A stretch of 64,000 bases of DNA, from positions 12,950 to 76,949 of the forward strand of contig JAFCCF010000001.1 in NCBI GenBank assembly GCA_017610325.1, read 5' to 3'. Shown one piece after another: positions 23,091-40,049 of this stretch (the first letter of the stretch is position 1; each line of letters starts with the position of its first letter). Made by a program: the position numbers and the translations under genes. This stretch comes from Candidatus Aminicenantes bacterium. Lineage in GTDB: Archaea > Nanobdellota > Nanobdellia > Woesearchaeales > JAFCCF01. The notes below the pieces were generated by a model. It did no database searches and was not told the origin of the DNA. It worked only from the letters and a program-made list of their open reading frames with translations.

Positions 23091-23230
23091 GCATCTTTTA
23101 CAGTCGCAAAAGCTGCACCAAAAGTTGTGCGGGCTACGCTTCGCTAGCCCCAACTTATACAGTGTGTACTCACTGGACACTGGACATGCGTACGTAATAT
23201 ATATAAATTACTAGGTTTTCTTACCTTGAT

Positions 23231-24122: not shown

Positions 24123-24422
24123 ATGATTTGCCATTCATATAACCTATTTTTTGACAATTTTTCAAACAAGACACGCATAAAGATAATAGAATCCCTTATT
24201 TTAGGGCCAAAATCTGTGACTGATATATGCAATATGACCAAAGAAGAACAGAGCAAAGTAAGCCATAACCTAAGGAACCTGAAAGAATGCCATTTCCTGG
24301 ATGTGAAAAAAAACGGCAAGCAGAGGATATATTCTTTGAACAAGGGTACAGTTGTGCCAATCCTGAAACTAGTAGAGAAGCATGTTCATAAGTATTGCGG
24401 CGAGGTGTGCAATAAAAAATGA
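24123..24422 (+). CDS. ArsR-family wHTH transcriptional regulator
   Basis: About 99 aa. HTH (SVTDICNMTKEEQSKVSHNLRNLKE) and wing. Overlaps the iscS start by 4 nt. Confidence 0.55.
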   Translation: MICHSYNLFFDNFSNKTRIKIIESLILGPKSVTDICNMTKEEQSKVSHNLRNLKECHFLDVKKNGKQRIYSLNKGTVVPILKLVEKHVHKYCGEVCNKK

Positions 24423-25576: not shown

Positions 25577-25964
25577 CTTATATTCGAAAAAAGTTATGGA
25601 ATATTTCCAGAAACCAAAAAACATGGGTGAGATTGAGAATGCAGACGGTATTGGCAAGGTAGGCAACCCAACCTGTGGTGATATGATGTATGTGTATATC
25701 AAAGTGACTAAAAAAGACGATAAGGAGATTATAAGCGACATCAGGGTCAAGACTTTTGGTTGTGTTGCAGCTATCGCCTCTAGTTCGGTGACCACAGAGT
25801 TGGTAAAGGGAAAGACAATCGAAGAAGCAGAAAAGATTTCAAAAGATGATGTTGCAAAAGCCCTGGGCGGCCTGCCGCCAGTCAAGATGCATTGTTCACT
25901 GCTGTCCATTGACGCTCTAAAAACCGCAATCAATGATTATCGTGAGAAAAAATCAGAAGGATGA
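25569..25964 (+). CDS. iscU: Fe-S cluster scaffold IscU/NifU-like
   Basis: 131 aa with the three scaffold cysteines (NPTCGDMM, FGCVAA, MHCSLL). Overlaps iscS by 8 nt. Confidence 0.9.
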   Translation: MADLYSKKVMEYFQKPKNMGEIENADGIGKVGNPTCGDMMYVYIKVTKKDDKEIISDIRVKTFGCVAAIASSSVTTELVKGKTIEEAEKISKDDVAKALGGLPPVKMHCSLLSIDALKTAINDYREKKSEG

Positions 25965-25967: not shown

Positions 25968-27536
25968 GTGGGTACGCACAAAATGAATAAAAAAGTACTC
26001 TTAGTCTATACACCAGGTCTATATAGGGACTATACAAATGAAAACCAGTACCTTGAATTCCCTGTGGGAATCCTCTCCATAGCATCTTTGCTAAAGGAAC
26101 ACGGTTTTCAAGTAGAAATCATAGACGGGAACATTGACGGGGGCTACACAGAAAAAATCAGGAAAAACCTGGGCAATGCCCTGTTTGTTGGTTTTAGTGT
26201 GATGACAACCCAGGTAAAGAAGGCTCTTGAAGCTTCAAGGATGATTAAGAAGATAAACAAGAATATCCCTGTTGTGTGGGGGGGGGTTCATCCATCCCTT
26301 GTTCCTGCCCAAACGTGCGAAGACCCTAATGTTGACATTGTAGTTTATGGAATGGGGGAAGCAACAACACTGCATTTGGCACAGAAGTTAAGAGACGGGA
26401 AACCGCTTTCTGAGATTCAGGGGATTTATTATAAGGAACATGGCAAGCTACTAAAGACAGCTGTGCGGCCTATTACACAATCAGAAGCCCTACAAGCTAT
26501 AGATTTTGACCTGGTGGATTGGGCAAGGTACGGTACATATAATCTTGAGCTCTGGCAGAAGGAGCGCGTTTTTATACGAAAGCCAACCAAGAGCAAGAAA
26601 GAGCTTAGCAGGTTTTTTTCTATTCAGACTTCAAGAGGGTGCCCTTACAAGTGCGTCTTCTGTACAATTCCCCTTATATATGGTTCAGAAGGAGACTACA
26701 GGAAAATGACGTACCTTAAAAGGTCAGCTGAGTCAGTGCTGGATGAAATTGAGGACCTTATCAAAAAATACAGTGTGCGGCAAATAATGTTCCAGGATGA
26801 GTGTTTTCTCAACAGTAGAAAGTGGCTGGAGGATTTCCTTGCTGGAATAGAAGCGCGAAAACTGAAGTTTGTGTGGAACATAAATGCGCGGTCTGACATA
26901 TTTGCTAAGGGCATTGTGTCTGAGGGGTTGCTTAAAAGAATGAAAAAAGAAGGTTGCATTTCAATGTTCATCGGAGCAGAGTCCGGTTCAAATAGGCTTT
27001 TGAAAAAAGTCCAAAAGTACATCACAGTAGAAGAGACAATTCAGACAGCAAGAATACTCAACAGGTACAACATTCCTTGTATATACGGCTTGATGATGGC
27101 TATTCCCGGAGAGACCCGGGCAGATTTGGTTTCAACGCTTGATCTCATCCTAAAACTTTATAAGATTGGTGGCAGGCACGTGAGAATCTCTGGCCCCGTT
27201 ATATTCCTGCTATTTCCAAGATGTAAATTATGGGGTGAGTGCAAGCGCCATGGCTATGAGGAACCTTTAAATCTACAGGAATGGGCAGATTTGCCTATGG
27301 AAGAAATCGTGCGCCCCGATTTTAGAAAACTGCCCTGGGTATCAAAAAAAAATTATGCTCTTATGGACTATCTCAAATTAATGGGGGCCCGCCATTTGCC
27401 AACAAACAAGTTTTTGCTGGCATTTCTTGAGCTAATTTGCCGGTTTAGAAAGAAGATTAATTGGTTCAGGTTTCCAGTTGAGCTTCTGGCTTGGAATTAT
27501 TACGAATACCGAAGGTTAAAACTAAGGATGGGATGA
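25968..27536 (+). CDS. B12-binding domain radical SAM protein (class B rSAM), paralogue group A
   Basis: 522 aa. N-terminal Rossmann-like B12-binding region, radical SAM CxxxCxxC (RGCPYKCVFC). Starts 4 nt after iscU. Confidence 0.8.
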   Translation: MGTHKMNKKVLLVYTPGLYRDYTNENQYLEFPVGILSIASLLKEHGFQVEIIDGNIDGGYTEKIRKNLGNALFVGFSVMTTQVKKALEASRMIKKINKNIPVVWGGVHPSLVPAQTCEDPNVDIVVYGMGEATTLHLAQKLRDGKPLSEIQGIYYKEHGKLLKTAVRPITQSEALQAIDFDLVDWARYGTYNLELWQKERVFIRKPTKSKKELSRFFSIQTSRGCPYKCVFCTIPLIYGSEGDYRKMTYLKRSAESVLDEIEDLIKKYSVRQIMFQDECFLNSRKWLEDFLAGIEARKLKFVWNINARSDIFAKGIVSEGLLKRMKKEGCISMFIGAESGSNRLLKKVQKYITVEETIQTARILNRYNIPCIYGLMMAIPGETRADLVSTLDLILKLYKIGGRHVRISGPVIFLLFPRCKLWGECKRHGYEEPLNLQEWADLPMEEIVRPDFRKLPWVSKKNYALMDYLKLMGARHLPTNKFLLAFLELICRFRKKINWFRFPVELLAWNYYEYRRLKLRMG

Positions 27537-28970
27537 CTATCGAGACAGGAAATCAGTTACATATCCCCACAGAAGCTCAAACTCATCTCTCAATTCACCC
27601 AGTGCCAGCATGACTGTCAAATATATTACTATTCCTACGGGGATTAACAAAAACAGGTTAACATCCCTTACAAGGAAGACCATAATGCCCATAAGAACAG
27701 AGGCAAAGACACTCTTATATGTAAGTTTTATTAAGCCAATCTTACAGAATGTTCTTGAGATGTATACAAAATTCATCAAAACAACAACAGCATAGCTAAC
27801 TAGGGTTGCAAAAGCACAACCCAATAAGCCATACCTTGGAATAAGCATTAGATTCAGAACAATGTTCAATGCCCCTGCCATGAGGAGGGCATACAGGTTA
27901 ACCTTCTCTTTCTTGAGAGCATAGAGAAGAGACCTTATAACCATATGTAGTGTTAGCAAGAGGCCATATATGAAGAACAACTTGAGTGCTAGGTCATATT
28001 GTGCAAAAGAGGGGCCCATAAATTGAGTGATTATCTTTTTTGAAAGGATAACCAACCCCGCAAATCCCGGAAGGGCGACGTACAAGGAATATTTCAGGAT
28101 TTTCCTGAACACTGGAACCAATTTTGCTTTCTTTTTTACAGTGTAAAGCAGCGTCATTGATGGAAAAGCTGCAAAAACCAATGAACCTGGAATCATAACA
28201 ACAAAATTAATAATCCTGAGAGTAAACTCATAGAGTCCAACAATCTTAAAGCTTGTGAGCTTTGTCAAGAACAGAATGTCTACGTTGTAGAAAAGAGCCG
28301 TCCCAAGCCCAATAAGCACAAAGAGGTAAGATGATTTGGTAAGGGAAGTGCACTTCTTGAAATCAAATGAAAAAACAATTTTTGGAAATCTCTTCATAGT
28401 GATTAGGAACAGCACAATAAAGCGCATTATTGATACACCCAGGAATGCCAAAAACAAAGCATTTATGCTGCCAGAAGATGAGAGTAGCGCATAGGCACTA
28501 ATTAACAGGACCAAGGTCAATAATGGGTTTATCAGCAGATACACCATTTTTTGGTATGCAACATAAATTGTGGAAAAAATGTTCGCAAAGTTGGATATAA
28601 TTGAGGATAAACCAATTATAAGGATACCCCAAGTGAATTGGCCGTAGGACCCACTCACCTTCAAAACGAGCAAAACTAGGAAGCAGAAGGTCAGTGAGGT
28701 GAAAACCTTCAGCACAAGGATGCTGGACACATAACCATTAAAATTCTTGTCTTTAGGGGATAAGGCCCGGATCGATGGAGTAAACATTCCAAACTGTAGG
28801 AAGACGCCAAGGAAACCAACAAATGCAAACACGAAACTGAACTTGCCCAGGCCCCCACTCCCCAAAAATCTAAGGATAGTCAGGATAAGGCCAAGATAAA
28901 GTAGTTTATTCAGTATGTTACTTATTAGGTGGTAATTAGCATTTGCAAATATTTTTTTTATTTCCATCAC
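27537..28970 (-). CDS. Wzx-like oligosaccharide/polysaccharide flippase (MOP superfamily)
   Basis: 477 aa, roughly 12-14 predicted TM helices, typical polysaccharide-biosynthesis-protein topology. Confidence 0.7.
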   Translation of the reverse strand: MMEIKKIFANANYHLISNILNKLLYLGLILTILRFLGSGGLGKFSFVFAFVGFLGVFLQFGMFTPSIRALSPKDKNFNGYVSSILVLKVFTSLTFCFLVLLVLKVSGSYGQFTWGILIIGLSSIISNFANIFSTIYVAYQKMVYLLINPLLTLVLLISAYALLSSSGSINALFLAFLGVSIMRFIVLFLITMKRFPKIVFSFDFKKCTSLTKSSYLFVLIGLGTALFYNVDILFLTKLTSFKIVGLYEFTLRIINFVVMIPGSLVFAAFPSMTLLYTVKKKAKLVPVFRKILKYSLYVALPGFAGLVILSKKIITQFMGPSFAQYDLALKLFFIYGLLLTLHMVIRSLLYALKKEKVNLYALLMAGALNIVLNLMLIPRYGLLGCAFATLVSYAVVVLMNFVYISRTFCKIGLIKLTYKSVFASVLMGIMVFLVRDVNLFLLIPVGIVIYLTVMLALGELRDEFELLWGYVTDFLSR

Positions 28971-30190
28971 CCACTAAGATAATTTATCCATTCCTCTGGC
29001 TTAATTTTTGCCCTGTCAAGTTCTAGGGCAAGGCTATAGCACACCTCACATTTAATAGGTACCTTGGACAATGAAGGTGTACTACCAATTATGTCAACCA
29101 CCTTGCCAGTTCTTTTTAGGATTAACTCTTCGCCTCGCCTGATCAGTTGCCTGAAATTATGGGTGGGTGAAGTGTTTTTAAGGAATTTAGCCATGTTGCT
29201 TGCCCCCATCTGTTCAACCTCTTTACGAAGCTGTTTGATTATCATCGTCTTGTCTTCTGAGACTAAATCCTGTACACAAACACTTGAGGGAAAAACAATG
29301 TAGGGATTCATACCAACATGGCAGCAAGGAAGGTGCCTGATGCATACCTTAGAGCCACTCTTCTCAAAAAATATTTTCATGTCATCAGAGAAGCAGTTAA
29401 GCTCATGGTAACTGTAGTCGTTACTCTTATTTACACAACCAGCGTATATCTTATTATTGTCTACCTCTGACCTAAGCCTGCCAGTTACCATCAACCCATA
29501 ACTTATCAATCTGAACCATTTGAATATACCCAACACAAGATTGCTCTCTTTTAGCCCAAACAATGAGCTCAGTTTTCGGATTGTGTGGCGTGCTTTGTTC
29601 TTGATTTTAAAAAATAGAATCCTGTTCTCCAGAACAATTTTCCCTTCCTTTATGCTAGCATGACAATTGAGGTATTTTTTGACATATCTCAACTTGTATC
29701 TTTTTGAGAGCAGAAGGAAGAAATCATGGGCTAGTTTTTGCAACGAAGGTTCAGTAAAGCATTTGGAATCAACACTTATTGCAACAAAATCAAGTTTTTT
29801 CAAAATATTCAAGATATCCTGGGTTTTCCTATTAAGCGTGTTATTTTTGACACGTTCTTTCAAGAGGACCATCAATTTGCCAGTGTCTCTTGTCGCGGGT
29901 AATTTCTTAAGTTCCAGCTTCAAGATGCTTAGCGGATTAATCACCACCTTTTTTTCTTTGTCGTAGTATGTGGTAAGCGACTCTAAAAATGGTAGATTCA
30001 AAAGGGGATCGCCGCCTGTAACAGATATTTTGTCACTCATCTCTGAGAAGATTCCGAACAGATTCTTCAACGCCTTCTTCTCAGTATTGGTTTTACCAAT
30101 ATCATCAAACTTGATACTTATCTCCCCAAAATGGGAACAGTAGTAGCACTCGTTGTCACACTTTCCTGTTGGAAAAATAATTATCTCCAT
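28967..30190 (-). CDS. radical SAM protein with C-terminal Cys-rich (SPASM-like) region
   Basis: 407 aa. N-terminal CxxxCxxC (GKCDNECYYC) and C-terminal Cys clusters (CIRHLPCCH...CVQD...CEVC). Overlaps the flippase by 4 nt. Confidence 0.7.
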   Translation of the reverse strand: MEIIIFPTGKCDNECYYCSHFGEISIKFDDIGKTNTEKKALKNLFGIFSEMSDKISVTGGDPLLNLPFLESLTTYYDKEKKVVINPLSILKLELKKLPATRDTGKLMVLLKERVKNNTLNRKTQDILNILKKLDFVAISVDSKCFTEPSLQKLAHDFFLLLSKRYKLRYVKKYLNCHASIKEGKIVLENRILFFKIKNKARHTIRKLSSLFGLKESNLVLGIFKWFRLISYGLMVTGRLRSEVDNNKIYAGCVNKSNDYSYHELNCFSDDMKIFFEKSGSKVCIRHLPCCHVGMNPYIVFPSSVCVQDLVSEDKTMIIKQLRKEVEQMGASNMAKFLKNTSPTHNFRQLIRRGEELILKRTGKVVDIIGSTPSLSKVPIKCEVCYSLALELDRAKIKPEEWINYLSG

Positions 30191-30193
30191 TTT

Positions 30194-31270
30194 CTAAATC
30201 TTTGACGGCAGCTTTACAAGCCAGTTTTTTATAAAATAAAGGTCCTGCACAATATTTTTTGCTTTGTTACCAAAACTGGTTGGCCAAAGAACCGGATATA
30301 TAAGTGATTTTATCTTATAATTCCAACTTACTTTGAAAAGATTTTCCTTCATAGAATCAAGCAAAATCCTCTTTAGCAAAGAACCCTTTATACCCAACTT
30401 AGTGCGGAAGTCTTCTGGCAAACTACATCTAAAAAACGTTTCGCAGAGCACAAGGCAATAATACACTAATTGGTTTGTGTTTGTCTTTGTGCATTTTTCA
30501 TAGAGTGCTGACCAATTAATTTTTTGTTTTCTTAACATCTCATTAAGTTCATAAAGTGTTCTTAAACCACCTGCAAAAGAATGCCCCATCAGATGTATGC
30601 ACGAATAAATTATTTGGTCTTCCAACTTTAGGATATCTATCTTGTCATCCTTAATCTCAATCGTTTTGGTTTTAAAGGAGGCTTTGAACCCATGGTGACC
30701 AAAGAAAAGCCTATCATGGACCTCAACCAATATTGTCCAGTTTCCAATCTTTTTTCTGCAATCAAAGTGATGGTAATGGGGGTGCCTGTCAACTGAGTAG
30801 CCTTTCCTAATCATTTCTGTTCTTATCTTTTTGGAGTCATTTGAATCAATAAGCAGGTCAATGTCTTGCATTGGCCTTTTAAGCAGATTGATTTTTCTGT
30901 AATGGTTCACGGAGTAACCTTTCAAAAGCACAAACTTGACAGAATGCTTCCAAAACAGTTTACAGAGTTCAGTAAACTCCATTAGCATTAGCATACTGTT
31001 CGCAATAGAATAATCCTTATACCTGACAAGCCTCTGCTCAAACCTCTTAGGCACAGCCAGTCTTAAAGTCCTTACACAATCAAGAGCATCTATATGTAGC
31101 AGATTATTTGAGATAATTTCCCATATAATATCCCACTTAATGGAAACAATAAGCGCCTTAACCCTTTTTCTATCACGATTCAGCAAAGCCAGCATAAATT
31201 CCTCCTCTTTGCCCAGCGAAGGGTTTCTTGATTTCCTGGTTTTGGTCATGGGCTTTTTCACCATGTGCAT
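30194..31270 (-). CDS. uncharacterised nucleotidyltransferase (NTP_transf_5 / PF14907-like)
   Basis: 358 aa. Segment VLLKGYSVNHYRKINLLKRPMQDIDLLIDSND...IRKGY fits the family pattern LKG...R...DiDlLv.... Confidence 0.55.
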   Translation of the reverse strand: MHMVKKPMTKTRKSRNPSLGKEEEFMLALLNRDRKRVKALIVSIKWDIIWEIISNNLLHIDALDCVRTLRLAVPKRFEQRLVRYKDYSIANSMLMLMEFTELCKLFWKHSVKFVLLKGYSVNHYRKINLLKRPMQDIDLLIDSNDSKKIRTEMIRKGYSVDRHPHYHHFDCRKKIGNWTILVEVHDRLFFGHHGFKASFKTKTIEIKDDKIDILKLEDQIIYSCIHLMGHSFAGGLRTLYELNEMLRKQKINWSALYEKCTKTNTNQLVYYCLVLCETFFRCSLPEDFRTKLGIKGSLLKRILLDSMKENLFKVSWNYKIKSLIYPVLWPTSFGNKAKNIVQDLYFIKNWLVKLPSKI

Positions 31271-31314
31271 AACGAGACAAAAAGTATATATAAAACCTTG
31301 TTTAATTTAAACAT

Positions 31315-32883
31315 ATGTTCTCCAAGAATTTATCACAAAGAAAGATACTCCTTCTAATAATCCTCTTTGCTTTGCTAGTAAGGTTACCCTGGTTGTATAC
31401 AACCATAGAAAGGGATGAAGCAACCAATGCGCTCACTGCCTGGAGGGTTTTGCATGGCGAAACTCTCTACAAGGATATCCACGCCGACAAACCACCCCTA
31501 CTGTATGTTTTTTACCTTGTGCCCATCTCAATATTCGGCAATTCAATTATCCCAATAAGGCTTCTTAACAACCTCCTCTTTGTTTTTTCCATCATCATCT
31601 TTTTCAGGATTGCTGAAAACATCTTTAAGAGAAGGGTCGCAATATACTCAACTATTCTCTTTGCATTTGCCATGAACATCCCTGTATTTGAGGGGCAGTT
31701 GGCAATGTCAGAGTCTTTGCTGACCCTGTTTGTTTTGTTGTCTGTTTATTCTTATTATAAATTTGCAAAAGAACACAAACCAGTTAACTTATTCCTCTCG
31801 TCTTTGTTTATGACACTTTCTGTTCTCACAAAGCATCAGGCAATTATCCTTTGGTTTATGCTGCTAACATTGTTTCTTATCCACACCAAATCTGCAGGTT
31901 TTATCAAGAAAAATCGCCCACTTTTTCTCAAGAGCTTACTATATCTCATATTACCAATGGGTTTTGTGACATTTGCTACACTTATCCTGATGGTCTTCAT
32001 GGAGTTTGATGGAATCTTGATTATAATTAAGCTTAGTGCAATCAGGGCAATATCTACTGTAACTGATTTATTCAAAGCTATTTTTGGTCTTAGACAGATT
32101 GGAGAAGCAAAGGCAGTGGTAACATTGAGCATGTGGCGCTCGTACAAGTATGTCCCATTCGGTTACGTGCTGCTTTATCTTTTGGAGGGTGCTTTCCTCT
32201 TCTTTTTATCCTTGGTTGGTATGTTTAAATTATTCAAGGAAAAGAGCAGACCTAAATGCAACTTTAGCAAGCAACTTGTTATTGTCTGGTTCTCTTTTTC
32301 ACTAATGGTTTCCTTAGTTCCAAAAGCCTTCGGCCATTTTTTTATCTTCCTGATACCACCCGCATCGCTTCTAGCAGGTTTCGCGTTATATAACATTATA
32401 AAGAAAAAGTCTGTTCGCAACAACCTGTTTTTGGTCTTGGTTTTAGTTTTATTAATGGTGTCTCTATTTTTTCAGGTTAAACATTACCCAGACTTTCACA
32501 TCACCTATGGCCCATACAGGATGGGGTTCAGTGATTTTGGTAGTTATTCTGACCAGCTGGCGTTCGGCAAATTCATAAAAGAAACCAAATCAAAGGATGA
32601 TTCCATCATTGTCTTTGGGTGGGCGCCGGTAATCTACTGGCTAAGTGAAACCAAACCAATAACTCAAAGCAGCTTTAATTTCAATGCAGACGACCTATTT
32701 CAGGCAATTCAAGAAAAACAACCGCGATACATAATAATCATGCCATACTCAGATATTGACCACCTATCTATCTTTCCTGTCAGGGGGCTAACTACAGAGA
32801 AAAAAAAGGAGTTCGAGGAATATCTAGAGCATTACATACTTTCAAACGTTGAAGGTATTAGGGTATATTCAAAGAAAGAATAA
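31315..32883 (+). CDS. GT-C fold glycosyltransferase (PMT_2/ArnT-like, GT39/GT83-type), polytopic membrane protein
   Basis: 522 aa, more than 10 TM helices. N-terminal DEATNALTA...KPPLLYV loop typical of PMT_2. No WWDYG motif, so it is not AglB. Confidence 0.6.
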   Translation: MFSKNLSQRKILLLIILFALLVRLPWLYTTIERDEATNALTAWRVLHGETLYKDIHADKPPLLYVFYLVPISIFGNSIIPIRLLNNLLFVFSIIIFFRIAENIFKRRVAIYSTILFAFAMNIPVFEGQLAMSESLLTLFVLLSVYSYYKFAKEHKPVNLFLSSLFMTLSVLTKHQAIILWFMLLTLFLIHTKSAGFIKKNRPLFLKSLLYLILPMGFVTFATLILMVFMEFDGILIIIKLSAIRAISTVTDLFKAIFGLRQIGEAKAVVTLSMWRSYKYVPFGYVLLYLLEGAFLFFLSLVGMFKLFKEKSRPKCNFSKQLVIVWFSFSLMVSLVPKAFGHFFIFLIPPASLLAGFALYNIIKKKSVRNNLFLVLVLVLLMVSLFFQVKHYPDFHITYGPYRMGFSDFGSYSDQLAFGKFIKETKSKDDSIIVFGWAPVIYWLSETKPITQSSFNFNADDLFQAIQEKQPRYIIIMPYSDIDHLSIFPVRGLTTEKKKEFEEYLEHYILSNVEGIRVYSKKE

Positions 32884-32889
32884 AGCGTC

Positions 32890-33945
32890 CTACCCCAACA
32901 GTTCTTTTAGAATCTTACTGTTATTTTCATCAATACTGTTGTATGCAAATCTCATGCTGACAACGGAATAATTATAACAAGAATTGAACTCACCCATTCC
33001 GCCCTCCATGGATTTTATATCTCCAGCGTATGCTTTTGCTTTGTCAGCATCCCCTTGTTTATAACTGTCCAGGGCCAGTTGTATTGTAGTATCACAAAAT
33101 ACCCTTCCATCTTGGGCTTCATTTATTATATCATGGTAAATCAAAACTGCTGTATCCTGCTCTCCCTGTAATTTATAAAGTGCAGCTAATATATTTTTCA
33201 ACATCAACAAACTATCGCCCTGGAATGTTGAAGGGTATTTTGGACTCTGCATTATGTCTTTTAAATACTTAGTAGCATTTTTAATGTCAAGACCCCATTG
33301 ACTAGCCATCAGGGGATAAATGTGCAGGTGTAGCTCTTGTAGGTCTGGTCTCTGAGAAGCCACCCTGAGACCATCAATATTTTTTGTCTTACTAAAAAAA
33401 TCAACCAACAGTATAGGTAAAATCCTTGCCTCTTTGGTGTCTAGATTAGAGGTTTCTACCGATTCTGCCCTCTCAATTATGGCTACTTCTTCTTCTGGGG
33501 TAGGTGATTTAGAAAGATTTGCCCCTACTAATTCCAGGTCATAGACAATTCGTGTTAGATAGAAAAAATTTGCAAGATTCACTCTATCGTTCCAAGTGAA
33601 ATTTAATAGGGTTGATATGTTATAGTACTCTTGACTTTTTTTAAAGACGTTACTAAGCATTTTAAGGTCTTCATCTTCACTTAGTGTATCTTTAATATCG
33701 TCGTAACCACCCGTTAAAAAGAGGTCACTCTGGTATAAGAAATCTAGGTATTCGTCAGCGAATGCCTCCACCTCTGCATTGGATGGGGTAGCTGTAGTTT
33801 GGGGAGTAGTTGTTGTCGAGGTTGTATCACCTGGTTCTGTTTTCCAAGGTGCGAACAATAAGACAACCACCCCTATACATGCAATTAGAATTATAACGAG
33901 TAGAACTGATTTTTTCACCTTCTTTTTTTCTTTTGACTTAGCCAA
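32890..33945 (-). CDS. membrane-anchored extracellular protein with Thr-rich linker; hypothetical
   Basis: 351 aa. N-terminal Lys-rich stretch plus a TM anchor, a TTSTTTTPQTTATP linker, then a globular helical domain. Confidence 0.45.
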   Translation of the reverse strand: MAKSKEKKKVKKSVLLVIILIACIGVVVLLFAPWKTEPGDTTSTTTTPQTTATPSNAEVEAFADEYLDFLYQSDLFLTGGYDDIKDTLSEDEDLKMLSNVFKKSQEYYNISTLLNFTWNDRVNLANFFYLTRIVYDLELVGANLSKSPTPEEEVAIIERAESVETSNLDTKEARILPILLVDFFSKTKNIDGLRVASQRPDLQELHLHIYPLMASQWGLDIKNATKYLKDIMQSPKYPSTFQGDSLLMLKNILAALYKLQGEQDTAVLIYHDIINEAQDGRVFCDTTIQLALDSYKQGDADKAKAYAGDIKSMEGGMGEFNSCYNYSVVSMRFAYNSIDENNSKILKELLG

Positions 33946-34034
33946 CTTACCCCAACAATATTATTATTATTTTGTTCCTTAAATATTTATCGGAAAACTA
34001 AAACTATTTAAATAAAGTTAATTCCTAATCCAGC

Positions 34035-34862
34035 ATGCAAGAAGATGCTCATGTCTCTCTGGAGCTGTTAGGCATAGTGTTTAAGATACACATCAAGAAT
34101 GAAGATTATCACAGAATCATTTCAGAGCAATACAAAAATTTTTTAACAAAAAGAAGAGAAGATTATTTTCTGAGCGTAGATTTTGCAAAAACATCGCAAA
34201 AAGAAAAGGATGCATGCATTAAGATTGATAAGGTGGGGGATTCTTTTGTCATTGGAAACTCATTTTTCAGGGGCACATTCTATCCGGGACGGAAAAAATC
34301 ACAGGTAACGCTTTTTAGGACCCCGCTTAAGCAGATATATGCGCCAGGAGTTTTATCTGATTTTTTGGCAACATGTTATTCCATACTTTTACTTGATAAA
34401 GGATACTTCATCTTACACAGCTCAGGCTTGGTAAAAGATAGAAAAGGGTACATTTTTTGCGGTCAAAGTGGTGCTGGCAAAACAACAATCGCAGAGAAGA
34501 GCGGGGCAGTTGTGCTAAATGATGACTTTGTCTTTGTCAAGGCAAGCAACGGGAAATGGAATGTGTACGGCACGCCTTTTTCAGCCACATTTCCTGGAGT
34601 AAATAAGGCCCATAAACTAGATAAAATCTTCTTAATCAAACATGCCAAAACCAATTACACGCGTAGGCTTAAGAAGATTAATGCAATAGGTCCATTGCTT
34701 TCACATATGGTCTTAGTTGGTAGGATGATGGAGGGAAATTATCTTGACCACAATCGAAAGATATTTAACCTTCTTGTGGATATTGTAAAATCTGTCCCGG
34801 TGTACTGGCTGGGTTTCACATCAGATTGCTCGTTTTTGGGTGAACTGGATGAATTTAAATAA
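34035..34862 (+). CDS. HPr kinase C-terminal domain-like P-loop protein (putative peptide/substrate kinase)
   Basis: 275 aa. LHSSGLVKDRKGYIFCGQSGAGKTTIAEKSGAVVLNDDFVFV matches the HprK_C core (P-loop followed by DD). Confidence 0.6.
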   Translation: MQEDAHVSLELLGIVFKIHIKNEDYHRIISEQYKNFLTKRREDYFLSVDFAKTSQKEKDACIKIDKVGDSFVIGNSFFRGTFYPGRKKSQVTLFRTPLKQIYAPGVLSDFLATCYSILLLDKGYFILHSSGLVKDRKGYIFCGQSGAGKTTIAEKSGAVVLNDDFVFVKASNGKWNVYGTPFSATFPGVNKAHKLDKIFLIKHAKTNYTRRLKKINAIGPLLSHMVLVGRMMEGNYLDHNRKIFNLLVDIVKSVPVYWLGFTSDCSFLGELDEFK

Positions 34863-35163
34863 CTATGTTAAGATCAAATCTCATGTAGAGTGGAAACAGG
34901 TAGATAAAGAAATCATAATATTTGATACAAAAAATACCTCATTCTACAAACCAAATGAGACCGGGGCCCTTATCTGGTGGAGCCTGGTAAAGGGGAACAA
35001 CCTCCTGGCTGCTTTGAAATCAGTGCAGAATTCCTGCGAAGCAGATTCAGCTGAATTGCAGAAGGATGTAATTGATTTTCTAAATGAACTCGTTGCAAAG
35101 GATTTGGTTCAGCCAATCGCCAAAAAACCCTCAAGTGTTAAGGAACAGATTAATTTGAGTTAG
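34840..35163 (+). CDS. PqqD-family protein (RiPP recognition element-like peptide chaperone)
   Basis: 107 aa. Pattern KQVDKEIIIFDTKNTSFYKPNETGALIW...DVIDFLNELVAKDLV typical of PqqD/RRE. Overlaps the HprK-like gene by 23 nt. Confidence 0.55.
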   Translation: MNWMNLNNYVKIKSHVEWKQVDKEIIIFDTKNTSFYKPNETGALIWWSLVKGNNLLAALKSVQNSCEADSAELQKDVIDFLNELVAKDLVQPIAKKPSSVKEQINLS

Positions 35164-36317
35164 GGTGGCAGGTATTTCTTAAGAAAACTAAATAGTATCT
35201 TTCTATCTTCTCCCTCTACCTGTGATATTATCCATTTGCAGCAATCAAAGTAAATTAGCTTCATCATACAGCCTTCCATGGTGTGCTTGAAAGAGTTACC
35301 CGTTTCAACGAAATTCCTGTAAACACAGGGACACTTGATGCAATAGTCCCGCATCCTACATTTCTTGCACTCGTTGTTTGTTAGGGAATATTCTTCAACG
35401 CACTGAGCATACATCTTGAATTTTACTGAATCAAATTTGCTAATTTTTCCAAAATCATTTTTGTCTAGATACAGGAACTGTCCACAACCATACACCTTTC
35501 CTTCTGGTGAAACAGTGAAAGTCTGGCCAGCTGCACTGCAGCATGAGTGCGGAACAACCTTCCCAAGTACCTCCCGGTCATAAATAGTTTTCAGGATATT
35601 GCAATATTCTATAAGATGGGGCACTGCTTTGTTCTTTTTAATATATTCAATGAACCACTCAGCAATTTTTAATCTATTATTCCTCAATCTTACTTTATTT
35701 TTTCTTTTGATTAAATTGATATCCTCCATTACAATAATATCATTTGGTTGTAGACTAGTTATGAAGTCAAGGTTTTTCTTAACATCCCTATCAGAAAACA
35801 AATATACATACTTGATTCCCAGGTGATTGGATATTTTATTTAGTCTCTTGATGTTTTTAACTACTACCTCCCAGGTTGGCTTACCCTGTTTTGTTCTTCT
35901 CCTAGAATCATGATTCTCTTTGACTCCATCCAAGCTGACGTCAACCATCAAATTGTGTTTTTTAATCAAATCCTGAATCCTTTTATTTAGGATAGTGAGG
36001 TTTGACGTGAATCTTATTTTAAGTTCTTTGTTTAACTGCTTTGCTTTTCTGTAGGCATATTCGCTAACAACATCAATAAGTTCAGGTTCCAGAAACGGTT
36101 CACCACCTATAAAATCCAATGAAAGCTTTTTTTCCTTGCTCTCAAACAACAGGTCAACAGCCATTTTGGCATCATCCAAAGAAATCCTCCTGTCGTTCTT
36201 TTCACCAACTAAACAATAAGAACAATTTAGATTACAATTCCTATTAAGGAAAATATCAACTCTTCTGTGACGCATTTTAACATCATATATGTCAGAAAAT
36301 AACTTTCTTGCCCCCAT
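35160..36317 (-). CDS. radical SAM / SPASM-domain protein (peptide- or cofactor-modifying type)
   Basis: 385 aa. CNLNCSYC radical SAM motif and a C-terminal twin Cys-rich auxiliary-cluster region (CCSAAGQ...GCGQF...CKKCRMRDYCIKCPC). Confidence 0.8.
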   Translation of the reverse strand: MGARKLFSDIYDVKMRHRRVDIFLNRNCNLNCSYCLVGEKNDRRISLDDAKMAVDLLFESKEKKLSLDFIGGEPFLEPELIDVVSEYAYRKAKQLNKELKIRFTSNLTILNKRIQDLIKKHNLMVDVSLDGVKENHDSRRRTKQGKPTWEVVVKNIKRLNKISNHLGIKYVYLFSDRDVKKNLDFITSLQPNDIIVMEDINLIKRKNKVRLRNNRLKIAEWFIEYIKKNKAVPHLIEYCNILKTIYDREVLGKVVPHSCCSAAGQTFTVSPEGKVYGCGQFLYLDKNDFGKISKFDSVKFKMYAQCVEEYSLTNNECKKCRMRDYCIKCPCVYRNFVETGNSFKHTMEGCMMKLIYFDCCKWIISQVEGEDRKILFSFLKKYLPP

Positions 36318-36443
36318 CTTAACAGGGTGTTAAAGCAGGACCAGTAACACAGGTTATCGCACCGAAGTGAATTTTCTCTTTGATACAAATTAACTTTGGC
36401 TTAACATACTCCTTCTTTTTTTTATGCATAGTTAATAAATATA

Positions 36444-36986
36444 ATGACAAGATATATAAATCTTTTTGTTTTTAAGATGTCCATGAATAAGGATATATCT
36501 AGTATGTTAAAACAGTTTGTTAGGGAGAAAAAACTACCTATTAAAATATCTGGCGAGAGCATGCAGCCACTGATAAGGTCTGGTGAAAAGGTTATAATAG
36601 TTAGTGCTAATGCCCTTAAACCAGGGGATATAATCTGTGCCAAGGGCTCCTGCGGAATAATGGTGCATAGGATAATAAGGCGCTTAAAAAATCAGCGTTT
36701 CCTGGTTAAAGGAGATAATAATTTTATAGGGGACCCTATACTAAGCAACAAAGACGTAATTGGGAAGGTGATTGCAATTAGGTCTGGCAAGATAAGGATA
36801 AACACAATGCCGTGGCGCTTTGCTAACAGAATGATTGCGTTGTTTTCTTACCTACAACTGGCCGTTTATGCTGGTTTTATGGCTAAAAGTAGCTCAGGAG
36901 ACAAGTTTTCTAAGCAGTTCAAAAACGCAGTTGTTATGATTTCAAACCCTTTCTTGTTTATTGTCCACATTCTTCACAAACAATGA
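36444..36986 (+). CDS. S24/S26-family serine peptidase-like protein (LexA/signal-peptidase fold)
   Basis: 180 aa. SGESMQPLIRSGEKVII is the GxSMxP catalytic-Ser motif with a downstream Lys (IIRRLKNQRFLVKGDNN). Confidence 0.5.
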   Translation: MTRYINLFVFKMSMNKDISSMLKQFVREKKLPIKISGESMQPLIRSGEKVIIVSANALKPGDIICAKGSCGIMVHRIIRRLKNQRFLVKGDNNFIGDPILSNKDVIGKVIAIRSGKIRINTMPWRFANRMIALFSYLQLAVYAGFMAKSSSGDKFSKQFKNAVVMISNPFLFIVHILHKQ

Positions 36987-38536
36987 AAAATAAAATACTG
37001 CTTGTGTATACCCCAAGGCCTTTTAGGGATTATTCAGATAAGGATGATTTCTATGAAGTTCCTCTTGGACTTCTGTCTATTGCATCAACCTTAAAAGGCA
37101 ACGGGTTTGACATAGAAATAATTGATGGAAACTTGGATAAAAATTATCAGGAAAAGGTGGGGCAAGCCAGCCAGGATGCGCTTTTTGTTGGGCTCAGTGT
37201 GATGACCACTCAAATAAAGGAAGCACTGGAGGTTTCAAAGCTTGTTAGAAGGGTTAACAGCAATACCCCAATTGTTTGGGGCGGCGTCCATCCATCCCTT
37301 GTTCCAATTCAAACCTGTGAAAACCCTTATGTGGATATTGTAGTATATGGCCAGGGAGAGATGACCACACTTGATTTGGCAAAAAAACTACAGAGCAAAG
37401 AACAACTTTCCAATGTACAGGGCATATACTATAAGAAAAATAACAAAGTTTTCAGGAATCAGGTAAGACAACCAACTGAGCTGGATGATATCCCTCCACT
37501 AAACCTGGGGTTAATTGATTTGCAGGACTATCTGAAAATAAATTACACCCTATGGAAAAACTCACTAAGGTTTTCAAGGCACAGTTTGAGGAAAGGGGAT
37601 GAGGTTATAAATAGGTTCCCACTATATACTGGGAGGGGGTGTCCGTATAATTGCGCATTCTGTACTATCCCTATAGTGTATGGCCCTAAAGGTGATTATG
37701 GGAAAAAGGTGTACATGAAAAAATCTGCTAAGAAAATCCTGGACGAGATGGAACATCTGATTAAAGAGAAAAACATACAACTTATTCTCTTCCAGGATGA
37801 GTTGTTTTTTAATGACAGGAAAACAATAGAAGATTTTCTGGATGAGCTGGAGGCAAGGGAGCTGAAGATTAAGTGGACAGTACTAGTGAGGGCAAGTTTC
37901 TTTACCAACTGCTATAAACCAGGCAATCTGATAGAACGAATCAGGAAAAATGGGTGCATTGCTCTGCTTATGGGAGCAGAATCAGGTTCAAATAAAACCC
38001 TTAGAGCTATGAAAAAAGACCTTACCAGAGAGCAACTGCTTACAACAACCAAGTTACTTGCGAAGCACAAAACCTATTTCTCGTATTCTTTTATTGTTGG
38101 GTTTCCTGGAGAAAATAAGAAAGATTTGCTAGCGACTTTAGATATTATGAAAGAAATGAAAAAAATTGCAGGGAGATATGTTGATGTATGCTTGCCGCAT
38201 ATATTCATGCTGTTTCCAAGAAGCGATTTGTGGAGCATTTGTGAAAAGTATGGCTACAAAGAACCCGGTTCTCTCCAGGAATGGGCCGGGCGTGCCATAG
38301 ATGATACCCTCAGCACAGATTTTCGGAAACTACCATGGATACCAAAATCTAACTATTCTTTAATAAGATTCCTCATGCTGGATGGTGCAAGCGCAATTCC
38401 AAATGGGAAATTATTAAAATGGATATACAACCAGATTTACCAGGTTAGAAGAAAGACTAGGTATTTTGGATTCCCTATTGAGATATTTGCGTGGAAGTAC
38501 TACGGAAAACTGAAGTTGAGACTTTTTGGCCATTGA
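36983..38536 (+). CDS. B12-binding domain radical SAM protein, paralogue group A (second copy)
   Basis: 517 aa. Collinear with 25968-27536 (same N-terminus KILLVYTP.., GRGCPYNCAFCTIP, C-terminal RKLPW...). Overlaps the peptidase gene by 4 nt. Confidence 0.8.
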   Translation: MKNKILLVYTPRPFRDYSDKDDFYEVPLGLLSIASTLKGNGFDIEIIDGNLDKNYQEKVGQASQDALFVGLSVMTTQIKEALEVSKLVRRVNSNTPIVWGGVHPSLVPIQTCENPYVDIVVYGQGEMTTLDLAKKLQSKEQLSNVQGIYYKKNNKVFRNQVRQPTELDDIPPLNLGLIDLQDYLKINYTLWKNSLRFSRHSLRKGDEVINRFPLYTGRGCPYNCAFCTIPIVYGPKGDYGKKVYMKKSAKKILDEMEHLIKEKNIQLILFQDELFFNDRKTIEDFLDELEARELKIKWTVLVRASFFTNCYKPGNLIERIRKNGCIALLMGAESGSNKTLRAMKKDLTREQLLTTTKLLAKHKTYFSYSFIVGFPGENKKDLLATLDIMKEMKKIAGRYVDVCLPHIFMLFPRSDLWSICEKYGYKEPGSLQEWAGRAIDDTLSTDFRKLPWIPKSNYSLIRFLMLDGASAIPNGKLLKWIYNQIYQVRRKTRYFGFPIEIFAWKYYGKLKLRLFGH

Positions 38537-38553
38537 TTTTGGTTTCTAGCGAG

Positions 38554-39978
38554 TCAAATAACCATCTGCCTAATGGCCCTGAGCGTGTCGTAAGGCCTCT
38601 TCATGTATATATGCTGGATCTTGTCCTTGAATGACAGCTGGGAGAACATGTACCTTGTAACCTGCCTCTTTTTTCTGGTAACATATCTCCTTGCGAACCT
38701 TTCTTGCCTTTTGTTAAGCTTCCACAAACTCACCTTTGCGTACTGCTGCATAACATTCTTTTGTAAGTCAATGTGTTTACTGTTTAATCCATAAAGAACA
38801 CCCTTTTTCACAAGCTCAGCGAACAGTTTGGTGCTAGGCATGGGCACTAGGTTATTTATGTTTACTATCTTTAGCTGATTATCTTCTATCTGTTTTATGT
38901 TGTACAACACGTCCTCATAGCTCATGCCAGGATAATTAAAAATTATTGAGTATGCAGCAGGGATGCCTGCGTTTTCAATCATTTTGTTTTTTCTCTTGAA
39001 TTCTTCGATTGAGAAGGTCTTGCCAATCGCTTTCTGAATATTCTGTGAGAATGATTCAAGCCCCATCCCAACAAATACACAATTGCTTTCTTTCAACAGC
39101 TTCAGGTTCTTCTCATTTATGTATTTTAGCTTGGTCATGATACCTAAACCCAATCTCTTGTTGAGCCCTTTCTTATTGAAAAGGTCAAGAAACTCCCTTA
39201 CCTTGGGGTGCGACAAGATGAAACAAGAATCAGTGAAGTAAACGCATTTGATAAACGGGTATTTTGAAATAATTCCCTCAATCTCTTTGATAACCTTCTT
39301 TGGTGCCCTAGCCTTATATACTCCTTTGGACTGACCCTCTACACAGAAGCTGCAGCCACCTGTACAACCTAAAGAAAGAGTCATTGTTACTGTTGGAATC
39401 CTCTTGTATACAAGAGACACACTCCGAGAATGGAACTTCATATTGAAGCTGTCTCTGTCAGGCTTCTCAATCTCATCAATCCCAAAATTATAATTGGGCA
39501 CTCTTTTTGTCTTGATAATTTCACCGCTCCTTCTGAAAACAATGTTTGGTATCTTATCGAGTTTCTCTTTGTTAAGTATCTGTGATAATACTAATTCACC
39601 CTCACCAAGTATTAGGATATCAATATCTTTCAATCCTTCAAGCAACTTCCCCCCAACAGAGGTTGCGTATATCCCAAAAAGTATTATCCTGCATGAGGGT
39701 GCTTCTTCTTTTATAATTCTTGCATACTTCACAAACTGTTCCAACTCCCCAAGAAACACTTCAAATGCAGCGTAATCTGGTTTTTCCTTAATAATGAAGT
39801 TTTTAAAAACCCCCAGGCACCACCTTAAACTCATCTTTTCATACCTGAAGTGATATGTTTCATCAAACAGAATCGGTTTGTAACCAGTATATTTTTTTGT
39901 GTTGCTGATTAGTGAAGCTAATTTCATTGGAAAGAGTTTTATGTTCCCTGGATCAAGATTCACAAAAAGTGCCTTCTT
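38554..39978 (-). CDS. B12-binding domain radical SAM protein, paralogue group B
   Basis: CxxxCxxC motif GCTGGCSFC. The likely start is MKKALFVNL at 39978, by alignment with the paralogue at 40050-41477; the ORF tool extends it to 40023. Confidence 0.75.
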   Translation of the reverse strand, partial: KKALFVNLDPGNIKLFPMKLASLISNTKKYTGYKPILFDETYHFRYEKMSLRWCLGVFKNFIIKEKPDYAAFEVFLGELEQFVKYARIIKEEAPSCRIILFGIYATSVGGKLLEGLKDIDILILGEGELVLSQILNKEKLDKIPNIVFRRSGEIIKTKRVPNYNFGIDEIEKPDRDSFNMKFHSRSVSLVYKRIPTVTMTLSLGCTGGCSFCVEGQSKGVYKARAPKKVIKEIEGIISKYPFIKCVYFTDSCFILSHPKVREFLDLFNKKGLNKRLGLGIMTKLKYINEKNLKLLKESNCVFVGMGLESFSQNIQKAIGKTFSIEEFKRKNKMIENAGIPAAYSIIFNYPGMSYEDVLYNIKQIEDNQLKIVNINNLVPMPSTKLFAELVKKGVLYGLNSKHIDLQKNVMQQYAKVSLWKLNKRQERFARRYVTRKKRQVTRYMFSQLSFKDKIQHIYMKRPYDTLRAIRQMVI

Positions 39979-40049
39979 CATGTATTTAAGAAAAGCACAG
40001 ATAATATATATTCTTATCGGCAACCACCAGAAAACCCAATAAATTACTT

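Follow-up and report, generated by a model that had tools for sequence, protein, structure and literature searches.

A predicted archaeal RiPP locus containing all six parts of a bacterial radical SAM, kinase and nucleotidyltransferase cassette

Described systems closest to the locus

In lasso peptide biosynthesis PadeK and PsmK, both homologues of HPr kinase, phosphorylate the Ser at the C-terminus of their precursors, and PsmN, by annotation an "uncharacterised NTP transferase", adds a hexose to that Ser phosphate; D158/D159 of PsmK, the equivalents of the Asp-Asp pair discussed below, are essential, and fusions of the leader protease with a nucleotidyltransferase of this kind occur in some cases (PMC6993621, PMC8498205). 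The DNA analysed here is a stretch of 64,000 nucleotides, referred to as the window, and its archaeal origin is confirmed by genes for PolD DP1/DP2, Cdc6/Orc1, FEN1, PAN and RNase P p30. Like the paeninodin (PadeK) and pseudomycoidin (PsmK/PsmN) systems, it contains an HPr-kinase homologue, a nucleotidyltransferase of the uncharacterised family and a PqqD-type RRE in one cluster, and the likeness to lasso peptide tailoring drawn in an earlier note on this DNA is apt (PMC6993621, PMC8498205). A radical SAM (rSAM)/SPASM enzyme and an S24 peptidase, however, replace the lasso cyclase and the B2 cysteine protease. A scan of the principal ORFs from 16.6 to 50.6 kb revealed no Asn-synthetase-like cyclase and no transglutaminase-like B2 protease; it left aside the 3521-aa ORF with the three genes that follow, and NifS (24419-25576), NifU (25569-25964) and an ArsR-like ORF (24123-24422) were read by eye only. 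A lasso pathway is not supported: neither enzyme occurs in the scanned genes, and the candidate precursor ends in Cys, not Ser.

The SynChlorMet system (TIGR04248-04251: ScmC, ScmD, ScmE, ScmF) shares with the window a ScmC-type HprK-like protein, a PqqD homologue and rSAM/SPASM proteins. Membership is not supported, with scores of 14.1 bits for ScmC (cutoff 125) and 14.6 bits for ScmD (cutoff 100), and the 25 top-scoring models for the rSAM enzyme of the window included neither ScmE nor ScmF. To our knowledge, the Scm set has no S24 peptidase or nucleotidyltransferase. The HPr-rel-A (TIGR04352) and HprK-related kinase B (TIGR04355) families belong to the same P-loop superfamily as the kinase-like protein of the window, and the match is restricted to the P-loop region (residues 110-181). 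The protein scored 17.4 bits against TIGR04352 and 25.5 bits against TIGR04355, far below the cutoff of 200 that applies to each, and the proposed link to the HPr-rel-A system is not supported.

The ranthipeptide and SCIFF maturases PapB and CteB are the best family and structure match of the rSAM/SPASM enzyme, sharing with it the CX3CX2C motif, a complete set of SPASM cysteines and a Cys-containing substrate. Unlike them, the window enzyme has no fused N-terminal RRE, since its alignment with CteB begins only at residue 97 and PqqD is encoded by a gene of its own. The window precursor is also unlike PapA or SCIFF peptides.

The bacterial cassette and its counterparts in the window

The best point of comparison is a cassette that we defined from 81 bacterial loci with relatives of the kinase-like protein. 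Its usual order is PqqD, rSAM/SPASM enzyme, a peptide of 45-70 aa, kinase-like protein, S24 peptidase and nucleotidyltransferase, and its hosts, many of them anaerobic, are Desulfobacterota, Acidobacteriota, Chloroflexota, Omnitrophota, Nitrospirota and others. In fifty loci the sequence reaches 3 kb or more beyond the kinase-like gene in both directions; PqqD was present in 46 of these, the nucleotidyltransferase in 42, the rSAM/SPASM enzyme and the precursor in 40 each, and the S24 peptidase in at least 23. A conserved precursor-like ORF lies beside the kinase-like gene in 65 of the 81 loci. The 65 distinct cassette peptides have a common leader, KKxYxKPx[LIV]...AVLxxCK, and the last residue is always Ser (60) or Thr (5), usually within C-x3-G-S, which suggests C-terminal phosphorylation and further decoration, as in paeninodin and pseudomycoidin. 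Those two precursors are likewise Ser-ended, in contrast to the window peptide. One locus (L011) encodes a peptidase-nucleotidyltransferase fusion, reminiscent of the fusions to the leader protease found sometimes in lasso systems, and blast clusters read by eye place chain-length-regulator (Wzz-like) or other membrane proteins near some loci. Kinase-like proteins of this type have thousands of representatives, with matches in at least 453 GTDB species genomes. Neither a curated model nor a searchable paper covers the cassette and its precursor family, and the cassette is common in anaerobic bacteria and apparently unstudied.

The window contains all six gene families and the leader motif KKxYxKPx[LIV]. 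All ORFs of the earlier note were found where it had placed them, and its reading of a RiPP-type system is supported. The assembly that it called unusual is, as a set of families, a cassette conserved across bacteria, in no fewer than 81 loci; unusual features of the window are its archaeal host, the rearranged gene order and the divergence. Instead of the collinear one-strand bacterial order, the window has the nucleotidyltransferase (minus strand), then the kinase-like protein and PqqD (plus), the rSAM/SPASM enzyme and the precursor (minus) and the peptidase (plus), with unrelated genes interspersed. The GC content is reduced across 30-42 kb of the window, and homologue searches turned up neither another archaeal relative of the locus nor a closer one. 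We take the locus to be a real RiPP cluster with all six cassette parts present, rearranged and divergent.

The kinase-like protein (34035..34862, plus strand) is a P-loop protein of the HprK/PEPCK fold and of the Pfam "ScmC" type. Its proposed assignment as HPr-kinase C-terminal-like stood at the level of the superfamily but not of the family: no Pfam family was matched at cutoff (HprK_C was unmatched and PEPCK_ATP gave just 18.9 bits), while the best NCBIfam match was HprK_rel_B (25.5 bits, 6e-6), a precomputed Pfam match was to PF27840 "ScmC", and the AlphaFold model (pLDDT 77) matched PEPCK and HprK/P structures in Foldseek. A profile made only from the bacterial cassette proteins gave a full-length match of 131.7 bits (profile positions 5-286 of 291, protein residues 4-271 of 275). 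The P-loop GxSGxGK[ST] (here GQSGAGKT) and the DD metal site (D163-D164) expected in this fold are retained, as is H128. On the other hand, it has other residues in place of R165, W182, H183 and G184, whose conservation across the bacterial family is at least 94%.

The end of this gene overlaps the start of the gene for the PqqD-family RRE or peptide chaperone (34840..35163, plus strand), which begins at GTG 34840 or, as in the JGI annotation, at ATG 34849, and the two genes are predicted to form a translationally coupled unit. The PqqD assignment held (PF05402 at 41.7 bits and 1.5e-10, cutoff 23.4 bits), with lasso-type PqqD models at 2e-9 and the cassette profile at 39.2 bits. The rSAM/SPASM gene (35160..36317, minus strand) converges on the PqqD gene, and the stops of the two (35160 and 35163) overlap; for the rSAM/SPASM gene, Radical_SAM (3.8e-17) and full-length matches to SPASM maturases bore out the earlier call. 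This enzyme matched the PapB model at 170 bits (residues 22-342 on 7-327 of 330), short of the equivalog cutoff of 340, and CteB (5wgg) was the best solved structure at 3.7e-20. It has the rSAM core and the auxiliary-cluster cysteines of a ranthipeptide maturase, as CX3CX2C, CX(18)C with GX4C, and CX2CX5CX2CXC. Against the cassette rSAM profile it reached 76.7 bits, compared with the 170 bits for PapB, and orthology with the cassette's own rSAM enzyme is not supported. The bacterial enzymes are AhbD/MftC-like and not PapB/CteB-like; that of locus L058, for example, scored about 120 bits against AhbD/MftC, its best match, and 62 bits against PapB.

The S24/S26 peptidase (36444..36986, plus strand; possible start 36483) is a putative leader peptidase of the ER/archaeal signal-peptidase-I type. 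It matched Peptidase_S24 at 33.5 bits (cutoff 23.3), the archaeal-type signal peptidase I model at 47.9 (cutoff 51.85) and the cassette profile at 83 bits, and its catalytic Ser39, His75 and Asp91 are conserved. The NTP_transf_5 nucleotidyltransferase (30194..31270, minus strand), recognised as such in the earlier note, matched PF14907 at 118 bits and the cassette profile at 111 bits and retains the DxD pair (D136, D138) and His226/His230. The genes for PqqD, peptidase and nucleotidyltransferase lie within a few kb of the kinase-like gene with their catalytic residues intact.

Several neighbours have a less certain place in the pathway. A B12-binding rSAM enzyme (36983..38536, plus strand) starts with an ATG that overlaps the peptidase stop (ATGA) and is therefore probably co-expressed with the peptidase, as a predicted further transcription unit. 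This coupling is not a feature of the bacterial cassette, beside which B12-rSAM genes are rare (2 loci); cassette membership is uncertain, and a paralogue with 47% identity lies at 25968-27536. The enzyme may be a C-methyltransferase of the pathway. The nucleotidyltransferase gene, with a TATA box at -24, is predicted to lead another unit, in which it is joined by an orphan rSAM-like gene (28967..30190, minus strand) and, last and with a 4-nt overlap, by a Wzx/MurJ-type (Polysacc_synt) flippase (27537..28970, minus strand), which could be an exporter or part of a separate glycan function. The orphan had been read as a second rSAM enzyme. Its N-terminus is rSAM-like (CDNECYYC, then TGGDPLL), but its motifs are limited to CX3CX2C and GGDPLL and its Pfam score of 21.6 bits is below the cutoff of 29.5; homologue searches found no relative anywhere. 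Between the nucleotidyltransferase and the kinase-like gene lie a PMT_2 (GT-C) glycosyltransferase (31315..32883, plus strand), whose link to the pathway is uncertain, and a 351-aa protein (32890..33945, minus strand) that has a membrane anchor at its N-terminus and a segment rich in Thr, matches no family and is absent from the bacterial cassette. A GT2 glycosyltransferase is also near the locus.

A candidate precursor gene and its promoter

The earlier note saw no precursor gene and no obvious small ORF in the intergenic gaps. Both statements have to be revised: the gap 36318-36443 contains an unannotated minus-strand ORF (36319..36429) of 36 codons, encoding MHKKKKEYVKPKLICIKEKIHFGAITCVTGPALTPC and followed by a TAA stop that lies 1 nt ahead of the rSAM/SPASM ATG. 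The option, also raised there, of a very short peptide below the ORF threshold was the right one. We consider it probable, judging from sequence comparison and gene context, that the missing substrate of the cluster is this 36-residue peptide, encoded from 36429 to 36319, and that the pathway is a RiPP pathway.

The principal alternative is that the RiPP enzymes are real but the ORF arose by chance in a divergent promoter region, the substrate being a distant gene or the 351-aa membrane protein; we regard this as unlikely. The similarity of the peptide to the bacterial KKxYxKPx[LIV]...AVLxxC leader is weak but specific. With a profile of the bacterial precursors the ORF ranked second among 1756 window segments (12.6 bits, E 0.009), a match that spans only the N-terminus of the leader and is weak in absolute terms, and a clearly spurious out-of-frame segment scored equally, as a chance ORF would allow. 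Its score was reached by 13 of 5000 shuffles. Against a chance origin, the alignment shows the bacterial leader motif KKxYxKPx[LIV] in the peptide, the best 11 non-self matches in a reverse phmmer search of 12,254 ORFs were all cassette precursors, and the peptide holds the sole [YF]xKPx[LIVM] site preceded by at least 3 Lys/Arg in the six-frame translation. A strain variant with 99.74% identity points the same way: 4 of the 14 SNPs fall inside the ORF, which makes up 2% of the compared length (binomial P about 1e-4), yet the frame and all cysteines are kept. The C-terminus, by contrast, gives a chance ORF some support. The peptide is shorter than its bacterial counterparts, contains no Ser, ends in ...LTPC with Cys in place of Ser or Thr, and lacks the third Cys and the xxxGS tail of the family; what is more, neither the NCBI nor the JGI pipeline calls the ORF. 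As for the other proposed substrate, nothing in the bacterial loci corresponds to the 351-aa protein.

The position of the ORF also argues for a real gene. An archaeal TATA box, TTTATATA, lies at 36453..36460 on the minus strand, 31 nt upstream of the precursor ATG; on the plus strand it reads TATATAAA and precedes, by 30 nt, ATG 36483 inside the peptidase gene. The strict TATA motif occurs just 16 times in 128 kb (both strands counted). At least 9 other operon-leading genes of the window have a box at -28 to -33, the kinase-like gene among those with a box of their own (-28), and -31 is the spacing used by leaderless genes of this genome. If there were no precursor ORF, the 5' UTR in front of the rSAM gene would exceed 110 nt, which would set it apart from the other genes here. 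The box at 36453..36460 is thus likely to be the promoter of a leaderless transcript, with the precursor gene predicted to come first and the PapB/CteB-like rSAM/SPASM gene after it.

A proposed pathway

In the pathway that we propose, PqqD would bind the Lys-rich YxKPxL leader and present the peptide, and the rSAM/SPASM enzyme, in the manner of CteB and PapB, would form at least one thioether (or other radical) cross-link from Cys27 and/or Cys36. The P-loop protein would phosphorylate a hydroxyl, which in the bacterial cassette would be that of the invariant C-terminal Ser/Thr, and the nucleotidyltransferase would then decorate the phosphate. Since the window peptide is free of Ser, a Thr, for example Thr34, would serve as the target here; alternatively, the step may have been altered or lost. 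The signal-peptidase-like enzyme would cleave off the leader, and the coupled B12-rSAM enzyme may act as a C-methyltransferase.

A rival reading is that the locus is a decaying or repurposed remnant of a cassette acquired from bacteria, its genes intact but the kinase and nucleotidyltransferase no longer acting on the peptide, and the latter perhaps taken over by the neighbouring glycan machinery (flippase, PMT_2). The scrambled gene order, the operon that the nucleotidyltransferase shares with the orphan rSAM-like gene and the flippase, and the lower GC content are in keeping with this, and the residues lost from the kinase-like protein and the Ser tail lost from the peptide make a consistent pair of changes. 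We think such decay quite improbable, however, as the P-loop, DD pair and H128 of the kinase-like protein and the catalytic residues of the nucleotidyltransferase and peptidase are intact, the coupling to PqqD persists, and the kinase-like protein is identical in the two strains, which differ by 14 SNPs. That no peptide is involved, and that the enzymes modify a glycan, lipid or cofactor of the glycosylation/flippase neighbourhood, is very improbable: flippase, PMT_2 and GT2 genes are close by, and Wzz-like or other membrane proteins were seen near some bacterial loci, but PqqD/RRE proteins are peptide binders, a precursor-like ORF accompanies most of the bacterial kinase-like genes, the rSAM enzyme is most closely related to peptide maturases, and the set includes a signal-peptidase-type protease.

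Returning to the peptide pathway, we put forward a broader reading tentatively, with more doubt than confidence. The bacterial cassette may represent an undescribed RiPP class of rSAM-cross-linked Cys peptides, in which the C-terminal Ser is phosphorylated and then decorated, the lasso tailoring module being used on another scaffold together with a signal-peptidase-type leader protease. The window would be its first archaeal member. Its lost Ser tail and the changed residues of its kinase-like enzyme would then mean a different acceptor (a Thr, or the Cys or carboxylate at the C-terminus) or a role other than that of a kinase, and the product may be C-methylated by the B12-rSAM enzyme.

For genome annotation, the locus is one more case in which a 60-aa ORF threshold conceals the key gene of a RiPP cluster. 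The comparison reveals a large cassette with a clear precursor family and leads to a testable prediction, C-terminal Ser phosphorylation and decoration on a non-lasso scaffold, for which the cassette loci provide ready pairs of precursor and enzymes for heterologous expression. Few characterised archaeal RiPPs are known to us, and an archaeal radical SAM RiPP with kinase and nucleotidyltransferase tailoring would lengthen that list.

Gene layout and a small ORF in the 36318-36443 gap

All of the ORFs named in the earlier note were found where it had placed them, and the cluster comprises six relevant transcription units or genes. On the minus strand (31270..27537), the genes for an NTP_transf_5 nucleotidyltransferase (N), a 407-aa rSAM-like protein (28967-30190), and a Polysacc_synt flippase follow one another, either separated or overlapping by 3-4 nt. 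Beside them are a PMT_2 glycosyltransferase gene (31315-32883, plus strand) and a gene for a 351-aa membrane-anchored protein that matches no family (32890-33945, minus strand). The HprK/PEPCK-fold kinase-like protein (K, 34035-34862) and PqqD (34840/34849-35163) are encoded together on the plus strand, the PqqD gene being convergent with the minus-strand gene for the rSAM/SPASM enzyme (R, 36317..35160). The last unit, on the plus strand, consists of the S24 peptidase gene (P, 36444-36986) and a B12-binding rSAM gene (36983-38536) whose ATG is overlapped by the peptidase stop codon. This is one of four B12-binding rSAM genes (25968-27536, 36983-38536, 38554-40023, and 40050-41477) that fall into two pairs of paralogues, with 47% and 46% identity; the genes of the first of these pairs (25968-27536 and 36983-38536) bracket the entire cluster.

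The host is an archaeon, as the presence of genes for PolD DP1/DP2, Cdc6/Orc1, FEN1, PAN, and RNase P p30 establishes. An AT-rich gap of 750 nt (7462-8215), containing several inverted repeats, adjoins cdc6/orc1 (6253-7461) and the PolD DP1/DP2 genes (1140-6256), and is a candidate replication origin. A tRNA-Pro(CGG) gene adjoins a Cas4/PD-(D/E)XK nuclease gene (23018-24070); no CRISPR array was found within the window. Three very large ORFs are present at 44019-47537 (1172 aa), 47604-50585 (993 aa), and 50978-61543 (3521 aa), the last preceded by a short tandem repeat (50661-50749); a Pfam scan of the first two gave no match. The GC content is 0.33-0.38 across 30000-42000 versus about 0.40-0.45 in the flanks, a difference that would fit an acquired island containing the cluster.

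It had been thought that the intergenic gaps contain no obvious small ORF. When the ORF listing was extended down to 12 codons, however, the 126-nt gap 36318-36443 was found to encode, on the minus strand, the 36-aa peptide MHKKKKEYVKPKLICIKEKIHFGAITCVTGPALTPC (36429..36322; stop codon 36321..36319), which ends 1 nt short of the ATG of R at 36317. Neither the NCBI nor the JGI pipeline calls this ORF. A perfect archaeal TATA box (TTTATATA) begins 31 nt upstream of its ATG, and the strict motif occurs only 16 times in 128 kb, counted over both strands. A TATA-like box at -28 to -33 also precedes nine or more other genes that lead operons in the window, K among them at -28, so the genome appears to make leaderless transcripts with this spacing, and the small ORF is in register. 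On the other strand the same box reads TATATAAA, 30 nt upstream of an internal ATG of the peptidase gene at 36483 (stretch 36453-36483). The element may be one bidirectional promoter; in that case the peptidase would begin at Met14 and share the N-terminal length of its bacterial relatives.

Domains and conserved residues of the window enzymes

The PqqD, NTP_transf_5, Peptidase_S24, and Radical_SAM assignments of the earlier note all exceed the Pfam thresholds. K reached no Pfam-A threshold in the local library, and HprK_C in particular was unmatched. K does match the NCBIfam model for HprK-related kinase B (6e-6) and carries the precomputed Pfam label PF27840 'ScmC', and its AlphaFold model (pLDDT 77) resembles the structures of ATP-dependent PEPCK and HprK/P. 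The P-loop, Asp163-Asp164, and His128 are retained in K, while Arg165 (replaced by Phe), Trp182, His183, and Gly184, each of which is found in no fewer than 94% of 83 bacterial members, are lost. The peptidase keeps its catalytic Ser39, His75, and Asp91, and the nucleotidyltransferase keeps Asp136, Asp138, His226, and His230.

The 385-aa rSAM enzyme R can be aligned over its whole length with SPASM peptide maturases and contains the CX3CX2C motif and a complete set of SPASM cysteines. Its best model is PapB, at 170 bits (cutoff 340), and its best match among solved structures is the ranthipeptide maturase CteB (5wgg, 3.7e-20), beginning downstream of the RRE domain fused to CteB. The 407-aa protein (28967-30190) is rSAM-like only at its N-terminus (CX3CX2C, GGDPLL) and has extra Cys pairs; neither a set of 5.8 billion proteins nor the PDB yielded a homologue, and its single-sequence AlphaFold model was unusable (pLDDT 33).

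The locus resembles a ranthipeptide-type rSAM pathway combined with the tailoring module, kinase plus nucleotidyltransferase, of lasso peptides from Firmicutes. A lasso cluster was rejected because neither a cyclase nor a B2 protease was found among the genes scanned between 16.6 and 50.6 kb. Membership in SynChlorMet was also rejected, the scores being under the curated thresholds, and the suggested link to the HPr-rel-A system likewise fell short of its curated threshold.

A bacterial cassette and its precursor family

Word-indexed protein searches for closer relatives of K, R, and the 407-aa protein returned self or strain copies and a few distant matches; at a strict 1e-20, the search with R gave one match, in an unrelated phage-like context, and a metagenome scan with R gave nothing useful. 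A profile search with K yielded 13,185 cluster representatives at E<=1e-3. Scanning one genome per GTDB species with the pattern GTPWHG gave 453 confirmed relatives of K, the best 80 of which are all from bacterial MAGs (Desulfobacterota, Acidobacteriota, Chloroflexota, Omnitrophota, Nitrospirota, and others). The window K does not match GTPWHG, so its source genome and any archaeal relatives fall outside the catch of that scan.

The gene content of the bacterial loci was determined by iterated profile searches of their ORFs, with the window proteins as seeds. The recurrent order is PqqD, rSAM/SPASM, small ORF, K, S24 peptidase, and NTP_transf_5. Among the 50 loci that extend 3 kb or more to both sides of K, PqqD is present in 46, rSAM/SPASM in 40, the small ORF in 40, the nucleotidyltransferase in 42, and the S24 peptidase in at least 23. 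The last two are fused into one protein in L011 (10786-12396), and an ABC-transporter ATPase gene comes next in 16 loci. Desulfobacterales also have a minimal form (L016, L051, L052, and similar) composed of PqqD, precursor, K, and nucleotidyltransferase, with neither rSAM nor peptidase; the leaders in these loci carry an additional Cys (LDAKCAVLGFCK). The database protein closest to the window K (P0002, 34% identity) is encoded in L002 (58-1843), arranged as rSAM/SPASM, precursor, K, with an inserted 23S-rRNA-intervening-sequence-protein gene separating the rSAM gene from the precursor and a 1190-aa Peptidase_C25 protein encoded downstream. Canonical cassette members reached no NCBIfam cutoff other than that of the generic 'signal peptidase I' model, and the small ORFs match no NCBIfam or Pfam model. 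A full-text literature search found no description of the cassette, only the lasso precedents.

The bacterial small ORFs form one clear family of 65 distinct sequences. The leader has a Lys-rich start followed by Y-x-K-P-x-[LIV]-x-x-[VI]-x-L-x-P-E-E-A-V-L-x-x-C-K, and the tail of 16-31 residues is rich in Gly, Ser, Ala, Pro, and Thr. Two further Cys are found in 57 of the 65 tails, and in 46 the last Cys is followed by exactly five residues. The C-terminal residue is Ser in 60 precursors and Thr in the other 5, with 46 ending in Gly-Ser. The window peptide can be aligned to this family as far as the second Cys, where it ends; its identity to precursors from Desulfobacterales is 39-42%. It thus has neither the third Cys nor the xxxGS tail.

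When the window was searched with a profile of the bacterial precursors, the small ORF segment ranked second of 1756 stop-to-stop segments (12.6 bits, E 0.009), a score reached by 13 of 5000 composition-preserving shuffles. The first-ranked segment (23230-23349, plus strand) was judged spurious, lying out of frame inside the Cas4-like gene, which has its own start with a TATA box at -31; because this segment outranks the window peptide, the score alone is weak evidence. In the reverse search, which set the 36-aa peptide against all 12,254 ORFs from the fetched loci, cassette precursors took the top 11 non-self places, and 13 of the best 14, although precursors make up less than 1% of the ORFs. 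The pattern [YF]xKPx[LIVM] has 12 sites in the entire six-frame translation, and only the one in the small ORF follows at least three Lys/Arg.

A hypervariable core is the usual pattern of RiPP precursors. A metagenomic contig from a strain variant (L001) is 99.74% identical, with 14 differences in 5451 nt, and four of these fall inside the 111-nt small ORF (two synonymous, plus I25V and T29S), introducing no stops or frameshifts and retaining every Cys. The chance of at least four of 14 SNPs falling within 2% of the length is ~1e-4, and in this one variant the clustering follows the hypervariable-core pattern. Where the ORF lies, the register of its promoter, the outcome of the reverse search, and the distribution of the SNPs make it unlikely that the ORF arose by chance and that the true substrate lies elsewhere.

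Cassette profiles built from bacterial members only were used to score the window enzymes. K scores 131.7 bits over its full length, versus 25.5 for the best curated model, and the peptidase 83 bits, versus 47.9 for archaeal signal peptidase I; the nucleotidyltransferase reaches 111 bits and PqqD 39. R scores only 76.7 bits, compared with 170 for PapB, whereas the cassette rSAM of L058 is closest to AhbD/MftC-type models and scores just 62 bits against PapB. The rSAM step of the window thus seems to reflect either a very deep split or replacement by a non-orthologous enzyme. By these comparisons, the window locus is a divergent member of this unnamed bacterial cassette, sharing its kinase, PqqD, peptidase, nucleotidyltransferase, and leader but not its C-terminal Ser, rSAM orthology, or gene order.

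A scrambled gene order and the loss of the Ser and of the conserved K residues would also be expected of a decaying or repurposed remnant of the cassette. We consider this improbable, since two strains have all of the ORFs and most of the catalytic residues intact. A glycan or lipid rather than a peptide substrate, which the flippase/glycosyltransferase neighbourhood might suggest, is very improbable given the presence of PqqD, the affinities with peptide maturases, and the existence of a precursor family.

A proposed pathway

We regard a RiPP pathway with the small ORF as its precursor as the probable function of the cluster, and hold any specific chemical step with much less confidence. In the lasso-peptide systems, the HPr-kinase homologues PadeK and PsmK phosphorylate the C-terminal Ser of the precursor and recognise essentially that residue alone, and a DD pair is essential in PsmK (PMC6993621, PMC8498205). 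The addition of one or two hexoses to this phosphate requires PsmN, termed an uncharacterised NTP transferase, and PsmN-like nucleotidyltransferases are at times fused to the leader protease (PMC6993621, PMC8498205). In the bacterial cassette, PqqD would bind the leader, the rSAM/SPASM enzyme would cross-link the Cys residues, K would phosphorylate the invariant C-terminal Ser/Thr, and the nucleotidyltransferase would decorate the phosphate. The signal-peptidase-like enzyme, at times fused to the nucleotidyltransferase, would remove the leader, and an ABC transporter would export the product.

The same logic would apply to the window, with three departures. The cross-linking enzyme is CteB/PapB-like, which makes Cys-to-Thr or Cys-to-acidic-residue thioethers the obvious guess. 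Since the C-terminal Ser is missing and K is altered at conserved positions, two changes that fit each other, either a new acceptor would be used (Thr34, Thr29, Thr26, or a less orthodox one) or the phosphorylation step has been lost. Finally, the B12-rSAM enzyme that is translationally coupled to the peptidase may C-methylate the core. The interest of the locus lies in its archaeal host, in a precursor that had been missed, and in its pointing to a large and apparently uncharacterised cassette.
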